From Dehalococcoidales bacterium (lineage in GTDB: Bacteria > Chloroflexota > Dehalococcoidia > Dehalococcoidales > CSSed11-197), in contig JAQWDO010000001.1 of the NCBI GenBank assembly GCA_028705415.1, positions 1 to 38,492 on the forward strand: DNA of 38,492 nucleotides. Direction: 5' to 3'. The notes under the pieces were generated by a model. That model did not search any database. It had not been told where the DNA came from and saw only the letters and a program-made list of their open reading frames with translations. The position numbers and the translations under genes were made by a program. Below, piece by piece: positions 10,041 to 10,562 of this stretch (positions are counted from its first letter, which is position 1; each line of letters begins with the position of its first letter).

Positions 10041-10562
10041 ATGCACAAAATCATAAGAAATATATTCAGTAGAAAGCTTTCATCCGTTAAAGACCCGACC
10101 ACGGAAGATTTCGAAATTACTGGCTTACAACTCAAGGAACATGTATGCAGGGTTTTTGGCCGCAGCCTGGCCATACGCGAGCTCGATTCAGGCTCGGATA
10201 ACTCTGCTGAGATCGAGCTAAACAACCTCAGCACTCCACATTATGATATCGAAAGGTTTGGAGTTAGCTTTGTTGCTTCTCCAAGGCATGCTGATGTGCT
10301 CCTTATCACCGGGGCAGTTACCCGCAACATGCAGGAAGCTGTAATGAAAACTTATGCCGCAATGCCCCGCCCCTGCTGGGTGATTGCCGTTGGGGACGAT
10401 GCCTGTGGCGAAGGGCTATTAAATGGCAGCTACGGAGTTCTTGGTGGAGCAGACAAGGTCCTGCCAGTAGATTTTAAAATCCCCGGAAACCCACCCGCTC
10501 CATTAGAAATAATGCAAGGCCTGGCTTCATTCATGGAAAGCATTCGCCAGCCGAAAGCCTGA
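10041..10562 (+). CDS. HycG/HyfI-like (NuoB-type) small subunit lacking three of four [4Fe-4S] cysteine ligands
   Basis: [30 protein letters not shown] and [15 protein letters not shown] are NuoB/HycG signatures. GSDNSAE replaces GSCNGCE, and PGNPP replaces PGCPP. Only C122 (GDDACGEG) remains near a ligand position. Confidence 0.8.
   Translation: [173 protein letters not shown]

Follow-up and report, generated by a model that had tools for sequence, protein, structure and literature searches.

A conserved NuoB/HycG-type small subunit with all four [4Fe-4S] ligand positions replaced, from an Ehr-type operon of a Dehalococcoidales bacterium

The stretch of DNA analysed here (hereafter the window) comprises 38,492 nucleotides from a Dehalococcoidales bacterium (GenBank assembly GCA_028705415.1, contig JAQWDO010000001.1, positions 1 to 38,492 of the forward strand). 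Our subject is a gene for a small subunit of the NuoB/HycG/MbhJ type, which is the last of a six-gene hyfBCEFGI-like operon on the + strand (3449-10562). The 173-amino-acid (aa) protein is the exact translation of the open reading frame (ORF) 10041-10562 (+), and its ATG lies two bases past the stop codon of the large-subunit gene. The identical protein occurs on four contigs and is recorded as MDD4230317.1 from a Dehalococcoidales metagenome-assembled genome (MAG); public labels of identical and related small subunits read 'NuoB', 'Ni,Fe-hydrogenase III small subunit' or 'formate hydrogenlyase'. As described below, the operon would belong to the Ehr (Ech/energy-converting-hydrogenase-related) complexes, which were reportedly first named in Geobacter sulfurreducens, Coppi (2005) and Marreiros et al. 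(2013) being the reports in question. The features of the locus are collected in Table 1.

Table 1. Coordinates of the small-subunit gene, its former ligand codons, the other operon genes and further features of the window.
Feature	Position	Strand	Length and evidence
NuoB/HycG/MbhJ-type small subunit, lacking each of the four [4Fe-4S] ligands by alignment	10041..10562	+	173 aa; alignments, AlphaFold model, Foldseek
Former ligands 1 and 2, codons D53-N54-S55-A56	10197..10208	+	alignments and codon check; D53 in 120/120, position 56 A/V/T
Former ligand 3 (D120), in codons D119-D120-A121-C122	10395..10406	+	alignments and codon check
Former ligand 4, N150 codon (PGCPP to PGNPP)	10488..10490	+	alignments and codon check
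HyfB/HycC/NuoL-type antiporter-like membrane subunit	3449..5386	+	645 aa; Proton_antipo_M 5.7e-55, Proton_antipo_N; HycC 7z0s_C 3e-66; NCBIfam NF006418 'hydrogenase membrane subunit' 763 bits
HycD/NuoH-type membrane subunit	5374..6324	+	316 aa; Pfam NADHdh 9.6e-34; HycD 7z0s_D 6.7e-35
HyfE-type small membrane subunit	6321..6998	+	225 aa; NCBIfam NF008556 'hydrogenase 4 membrane subunit' 5.7e-17; without Pfam hit
HyfF/NuoN-type antiporter-like membrane subunit	6998..8473	+	491 aa; Proton_antipo_M 2.6e-38; NCBIfam NF006427 498 bits
Fused NuoC-NuoD/HycE-type large subunit without NiFe ligands	8464..10038	+	524 aa; Complex1_30kDa and Complex1_49kDa; HycE 7z0s_E 8.7e-62
Cupin, directly downstream of the operon	10636..11013	-	
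Crp/FNR-type regulator, directly downstream of the operon	11103..11795	-	
Hybrid-cluster protein Hcp, directly downstream of the operon	11906..13468	+	Prismane 1e-161
DUF134 protein	2478..2909	-	
Intergenic region between DUF134 gene and operon	2910..3448		540 bp; without Rfam match
Protein without Pfam hit	501..1298	+	265 aa; weak NCBIfam likenesses: methanogenesis marker protein 11 (1.5e-10); TiaS, N-terminal part (9e-9)
Amino-acid-kinase-family protein	1620..2456	+	278 aa
tRNA	13606..13678		Rfam

Both sequence and fold place the small subunit in the PF01058 superfamily. The match to PF01058 (Oxidored_q6, NADH-ubiquinone oxidoreductase 20-kDa subunit) has an E-value of 6.6e-22, and the top matches among solved structures are Escherichia coli HycG (7z0s_G, 7e-28) and Pyrococcus furiosus MbhJ (6cfw_J, 4e-27), with more than 40 complex I NuoB/PSST chains ranking below them; the cut-off of the NCBIfam NuoB subfamily is barely exceeded (116.6 vs 116 bits). 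The AlphaFold2 model, based on 65 homologues, has a mean predicted local distance difference test (pLDDT) score of 82.9 and a predicted template-modelling (pTM) score of 0.79. Foldseek superposed this model on MbhJ 6cfw_J with a template-modelling score of 0.82 and a root-mean-square deviation of 2.6 Å at 41% identity, and the score on complex I PSST is about 0.75. The lowest confidence of the folded core falls on residues 51-60, which normally wrap the cluster (mean pLDDT 61). An earlier note on this DNA, made from the sequence alone, had held that the NuoB/HycG scaffold is kept, which these matches bear out; it had also described the protein as much shorter than HycG, put there at about 250 aa. 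HycG is indeed longer, with 255 aa including a C-terminal extension, but 173 aa is a normal length for the NuoB/HycG/MbhJ family, in which MbhJ has 167 aa and Thermus thermophilus Nqo6 has 181 aa. Absent from the protein, by contrast, is the set of four cysteine ligands that characterizes the superfamily.

The ligand positions were mapped with HMMER alignments to five solved structures and with three independent MAFFT alignments, all of which were concordant. The hydrogenase CxxC aligns on D53 and A56 and the complex I CC pair on S55 and A56, while the third ligand (G[AS]C) aligns on D120 and the fourth (PGCPP) on N150; the motifs flanking these sites (GS.N..EIE, VG..A and PG.PP) align without gaps. 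By these alignments, all four canonical [4Fe-4S] ligand positions are replaced, namely by D53, A56, D120 and N150. The earlier note had recognized the replacement of cysteine by D53, A56 and N150 and had proposed an alignment as the check, and the substituted positions do coincide with the ligand positions. It had counted only three of the four ligands as lost, with C122 near the third; C122 is nearby, two residues downstream, but D120 is a substitution as well, so that all four are gone. The nearest Cys-containing relatives read 'GDCAC', i.e., they carry both cysteines, and therefore C122 was inherited rather than displaced; on this comparison it is an ancestral extra cysteine, neither a relocated ligand nor a ligand position.

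A search of 5.8 billion proteins returned 3343 homologues of the small subunit at E <= 1e-5, and the position counts given here refer to the best 120 of them (62-96% identity). These counts gave no support to an alternative ligand set drawn from C36, C112 or a histidine, which the earlier note had raised as a point to check: position 36 is aspartate in 89 of the 120, position 112 is glycine or lysine in most, and H83 is invariant but belongs to the SPRHAD motif common to the whole family. Exactly one cysteine is present in the entire protein in 73 of the 120 homologues, and therefore no alternative cysteine set could ligate a cluster. To our knowledge, every biological Fe-S cluster has at least two to three Cys or His ligands, non-cysteine ligation occurs only as one Asp, His or Glu with three Cys or as two His with two Cys, and a cluster held by one cysteine or none is without precedent. 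We consider it very probable that the protein carries no canonical cluster and is part of neither a hydrogenase nor an NADH dehydrogenase.

The replaced site is strictly conserved. Position 53 is aspartate in all 120 homologues, position 119 in 119 and position 120 in all 120; position 122 is cysteine in 119, position 150 is asparagine in 118 and aspartate in two, and position 56 is A, V or T with a single I. Over 65 aligned sequences, R46, E47, D49, G51-N54, E57, I58, G118-A121, G149, P151 and P152 are invariant. The former cluster-binding loops have been retained and are among the most conserved stretches of the small subunit, with the thiolates exchanged for fixed polar or acidic residues (D53, D119, D120 and N150, together with C122). 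Moreover, across two domains of life the small subunit is conserved better than any of the other five proteins, with 56-68% identity vs 38-55% for the antiporter-like subunits. Compared with a 90%-identical relative (L001), the small subunit has a ratio of nonsynonymous to synonymous substitution rates (dN/dS) of 0.32 and the large subunit one of 0.15.

The large subunit has likewise lost its metal ligands. Its L1 motif reads S-I-S-G-D-E-S-A-V-N where HycE has R-V-C-G-I-C-G-F-A-H (motif RxCGxCxxxH), and its L2 motif reads N-L-S-Y-A-G where HycE has D-P-C-Y-S-C (motif DPCxxC). The N-terminal CxxC is therefore S/E and the C-terminal CxxC is S/G, the L1 Arg and His are also gone, and the protein ends with NDL-stop right after L2, without a protease-cleaved tail. 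The marks of a group 4 [NiFe] hydrogenase, i.e., the L1 and L2 NiFe motifs and a ferredoxin-type 2x[4Fe-4S] subunit (HycF/EchF/MbhN), are accordingly missing. A six-frame scan of the 38-kb window detected no CxxCxxCxxxC (HycF/NuoI-type) motif in any real ORF, and Pfam searches of the small ORFs in the gap upstream of the operon (2457-3448), where the divergent DUF134 gene lies, found no Fe-S protein. When all ORFs of 90 aa or more in 20 related loci were clustered, no conserved partner gene emerged beyond the six operon genes, the other recurring ORF families being antisense shadow ORFs or lineage-specific neighbours. By its sequence, the soluble arm thus offers no canonical site for NiFe, for the proximal (N2-equivalent) cluster or for the two HycF/NuoI clusters. 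The earlier view that the whole peripheral arm is devoid of redox cofactors agrees with the Cys-less large subunit, the lack of a ferredoxin ORF in the window and the lack of an added gene in the 20 loci, as far as sequence can tell.

The membrane arm, compared among 14-16 homologues from both domains, retains its charged residues. In the 645-aa subunit, the TM5 Glu (WE), TM7 Lys, TM8 Lys and TM12 His/Lys (transmembrane helices being numbered TM) do not vary among 14 homologues; the acidic loop R.PvDNP.THLELTM.hEaMiLEqsG of the 316-aa NuoH-like subunit is conserved in 15, and the 225-aa HyfE-like subunit has membrane Glu residues (mENG, iE) and one Asp that are invariant in 14. In the 491-aa subunit, the TM5 Glu, TM7 Lys and TM12 Lys are also invariant; at about residue 258 in TM8 this subunit has Asn (the majority residue in 16 homologues), vs Lys in the 645-aa subunit and in HycC. 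These residues are established as the proton or ion carriers of complex I, MBH, FHL and Mrp; because they are intact, ion translocation was probably retained.

A scan of 185,579 species genomes yielded 25 related loci, and the same six genes in the same order were found in every locus reaching far enough upstream. The six-gene loci belong to Dehalococcoidales, to Dehalogenimonas and to MAGs that have been placed in Methanosarcina, Methanoregula, Woesearchaeota or Aenigmatarchaeota; in one locus, from Methanospirillum, the large and small subunits alone are present. All of the loci L001-L018 share GSDN, G[DN]DAC and GNPP in the small subunit and [SC]GDE and NLSY.G in the large subunit. Across L004-L018 the whole operon is common to Dehalococcoidia and archaeal MAGs, at 56-68% small-subunit identity, which implies inter-domain transfer of the complete module, and four Methanosarcina-type loci with the same flanking genes argue against binning contamination.

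Four further loci (L019-L022, 46-52% identity), from Chromatiales, a thiotrophic gamma-proteobacterial symbiont, Lysobacterales and Elusimicrobiales, combine NiFe-less large subunits (ISGDS..H and SYSG, with the L1 Arg kept and the His kept in three of the four) with small subunits that keep the [4Fe-4S] ligands (GSCN.CE, GDCA[CI] and GCPP). As these loci are also NiFe-less Ehr, the loss of the Fe-S site would sit inside Ehr. The clade of the window may thus be described as an Ehr lineage from which the [4Fe-4S] site, the L1 Arg and the L1 His have gone as well. The statement that classical Ehr keeps the four cysteines is drawn here from L019-L022 and the representative set described below, rather than from the type example, Geobacter EhrS.

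Loss of the ligands appears to have happened repeatedly. An exhaustive search with HMMER across 1.84 billion cluster representatives returned 5718 matches with E <= 0.001, and 133 of the best 150 span all four ligand columns: four ligand cysteines are present in 103 of these, two or three in 11, and at most one in 19. A rough neighbour-joining tree divides the Cys-less sequences into at least three distinct groups, each nested among sequences that have cysteines. The replacements in the 19 Cys-less representatives are mainly carboxylates or small polar residues (position 53: D in 10, N in three, S in three; position 56: E in eight, V in four, A in three; position 120: D in eight, G in seven, E in three; position 150: D in eight, S in eight, N in three), and most of the 19 have two to three acidic residues at or beside the ligand positions. 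One Cys-less group (L027) is NiFe-less as well, with a different gene order, and two more are from Chloroflexota or Dehalococcoidia. Two sister contigs, L026 (2-1647) and L028 (1487-3641), are of another kind: their small subunits read N-E-G-C-D/N at positions 53/56/120/122/150, with all four Fe-S cysteines gone, and both CxxC motifs for NiFe are present in their large subunits (H[VI]CGMCA..HS and NLCYAC). A genome paper of 2012 reported that the 'Ehr' of Desulfotomaculum ruminis keeps the four NiFe cysteines and might be a true hydrogenase, without discussing the small subunit (PMC3569383); L026 and L028 may correspond to this 'Ehr with NiFe Cys'. In L028, a gene for a SulP-family anion permease (PF00916; 3717-5276) lies directly 3' of the small subunit on the same strand, and in L020, the Cys-containing Ehr locus of the thiotrophic symbiont, another SulP gene (1089-2900), whose product has a STAS domain, lies divergently upstream.

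Concerning the remainder of the window, the DUF134 protein encoded divergently from the operon has a treble-clef zinc-finger-like C-terminus and may be a local regulator; its gene was not among the conserved neighbours when the 20 related loci were clustered. Rfam searches over the whole window detected only the tRNA. The likenesses of the 265-aa protein are to archaeal families, yet the contig is that of a bacterial Dehalococcoidales. The 278-aa protein is closest to archaeal-type UMP kinase and isopentenyl phosphate kinase, with scores far under the family cut-offs. The Dehalogenimonas locus L002 likewise has a cupin gene (2660-3094) beside the operon, not necessarily an orthologue of the cupin gene of the window.

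Taken together, our analyses suggest that the protein serves as the small subunit in a self-contained complex of the Ehr type with six subunits (HyfB-, HycD/NuoH-, HyfE-, HyfF-, HycE/NuoCD- and HycG/NuoB-like), in which the usual electron wire would be unable to run. The most economical reading, which we hold tentatively and with even or slightly less than even confidence, is that of a redox-independent ion translocator, Mrp-like in its mode of working. The complex could be an Mrp-like cation/proton exchanger or a machine coupling an ion gradient to a conformational change, and the cofactor-less NuoB/NuoD/NuoH module could serve as its gate or as a ligand-binding cap. Two to three carboxylates would take the place of the lost cluster and approximate its negative charge (roughly -2/-3 for Cys4[4Fe-4S]), and this carboxylate cluster might bind protons or a cation; that D53, D119, D120, C122 and N150 converge in space is predicted from homology to the solved cluster sites. 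Several points weigh against an ion translocator of this kind. Mrp works without NuoB, NuoD and NuoH, so that an antiporter role alone would leave the retention of the module unexplained. The strict conservation of D53, D119, D120, C122 and N150 argues for something specific, which could be a different metal centre. Furthermore, the combination of NiFe cysteines with an Fe-S-less small subunit in L026 and L028 is hard to square with a fully cofactor-free arm in those relatives and hints at non-cysteine ligation or another electron route; if those complexes are active, electrons must reach NiFe without a Cys-ligated proximal cluster, which bears on how the protein of the window is read. A more specific proposal, to which we give rather less credence, is a complex I-type coupling machine that has kept its Q-module with zero electron transfer, in which the carboxylates would form a protonatable or cation-binding charge switch that drives, or is driven by, the antiporter-like subunits. 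Such a machine would have evolved repeatedly and passed between bacteria and archaea, DPANN among them. DPANN archaea generally lack respiratory chains.

The conservation of the site is also the starting point of the most serious rival, according to which the remodelled site binds another metal centre (mononuclear Fe, Zn, Ni or Mn) or an unprecedented non-cysteine cluster via D53, D119, D120, C122 and N150, so that the soluble arm is still catalytic. The reaction could be a redox one; alternatively, a non-redox reaction might be coupled to the ion gradient, in the manner of the vectorial hydration of CO2 by NDH-1MS/CupA or DAB complexes. The five residues are invariant or nearly so across the distance between bacteria and archaea, the soluble subunits are constrained at least as much as the membrane ones, different Cys-less lineages have arrived again and again at one to three carboxylates together with Asn or Ser at these positions, and the sister complexes with NiFe cysteines leave room for a site that still relays something. 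However, position 56 is A, V or T, which cannot ligate, C122 is replaced by I or V in other Cys-less lineages, the lack of any known Fe-S site with one cysteine or none applies here as well, and no maturation or partner gene is conserved nearby in the 20 loci. The SulP genes adjoining two related operons could hint at a link to anion or bicarbonate transport, but these are two cases only. On balance, we regard this rival as unlikely.

Two further explanations were considered. The loss of every cofactor ligand would be expected of a decaying, functionless remnant of a hydrogenase, and a paper of 2026 assumes that the Geobacter Ehr is non-functional and drifting (PMC13194489). Nevertheless, the six ORFs are intact, the same six-gene order recurs in 20 loci from two domains, the small subunits of bacteria and archaea are 56-68% identical, the dN/dS values are 0.15-0.32, the transport residues and the substituted positions are invariant, and all Ehr subunits have been detected in the Geobacter proteome, with changes in abundance (PMC7894505). 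The pseudogene reading was therefore rejected on conservation and dN/dS, and decay strikes us as highly improbable. Still less credible, to a vanishing degree, is that we are dealing with an ordinary small subunit, from a [NiFe] hydrogenase or complex I, whose [4Fe-4S] cluster is normal, the loss being an artefact of alignment or annotation. The public 'NuoB' and hydrogenase labels and the NCBIfam NuoB score just above its cut-off would favour it, but the HMMER alignments on five solved structures agree with the three MAFFT alignments, the flanking motifs are gap-free, and most homologues have a single cysteine in total; this reading was ruled out by the alignments.

Metabolic reconstructions of Dehalococcoidia, methanogens and DPANN that count these proteins as hydrogenases or complex I would be wrong. 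The function of Ehr has been an open question since 2005, and a widespread clade apparently unable to bind the cluster would exclude, for its members, a redox partner that feeds electrons via the small subunit, pointing to a redox-independent role. In complex I, the transmission from the N2/quinone site to the antiporter-like subunits is still debated, and a conserved cofactor-free module would allow conformational coupling to be studied apart from electron transfer. Homologues are present in assemblies of Methanosarcina, a genus with genetic tools. More generally, the recurrent exchange of thiolates for carboxylates suggests a general route by which redox modules may be converted into something else.

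Among known systems, Ehr is the closest. It is defined by large subunits without NiFe cysteines (PMC10284858, PMC6349859, PMC3569383), was noted in Chloroflexi in 2021 (10.1101/2021.08.23.457424) and is left out of HydDB as non-hydrogenases (10.1101/061994). Its function was called unknown in papers of 2023-2025 (PMC10284858; PMC12342949; 10.1101/765248), and proposals assume a redox partner, e.g., formate dehydrogenase, coupled to ion translocation (PMC6349859). The operon of the window shares with Ehr the group-4-hydrogenase-like cluster, the antiporter-like and NuoH-like subunits and the large subunit without NiFe CxxC; it differs in that its nearest relatives keep GSCNxCE/GDCAC/PGCPP and the L1 Arg and His, all of which are missing from its own clade. 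Because the nearest relatives with common synteny and the ISGD and SY.G motifs are Ehr-type, the operon probably represents a sub-clade of Ehr. No mention of cluster loss in the small subunit was found in the Ehr papers surveyed, many of which deal with large subunits, although Coppi (2005) or Marreiros et al. (2013) may contain it.

Compared to E. coli FHL/Hyd-3/Hyd-4 (7Z0S), which provides the best solved match for four subunits (HycC, HycD, HycE and HycG) and a gene order close to hyfB-C-E-F-G-I, the complex of the window lacks HycB/HycF (HyfA/HyfH), formate dehydrogenase, the NiFe and proximal-cluster ligands, the C-terminal extension of the small subunit (173 vs 255 aa) and the protease tail of the large subunit. 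With P. furiosus MBH/MBS (6CFW, 6U8Y) it has in common an Mrp-like membrane arm and, in MbhJ, the closest fold and a similar size; however, MbhJ, MbhL and MbhN of MBH carry three [4Fe-4S] clusters and NiFe, whereas such ligand sets and an MbhN homologue are absent here. The likeness to NuoB/PSST/Nqo6 of complex I extends to the fold, the Pfam and NCBIfam families and the SPRHAD and PG.PP motifs, but the N2 tandem CC and the third and fourth cysteines are gone, and the operon encodes neither NuoA, NuoI or NuoJ nor an N-module. The Mrp antiporters (6Z16, 7QRU) are redox-independent, and the 645-aa and 491-aa subunits match MrpA and MrpD (1.6e-42 and 2e-30) with the same Glu/Lys pattern; in contrast, Mrp has no NuoH/NuoD/NuoB-like subunits, and its MrpB, E, F and G are missing here. 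The complex is not a member of the Mrp family, but by analogy Mrp may offer the closest model for the way in which it works.

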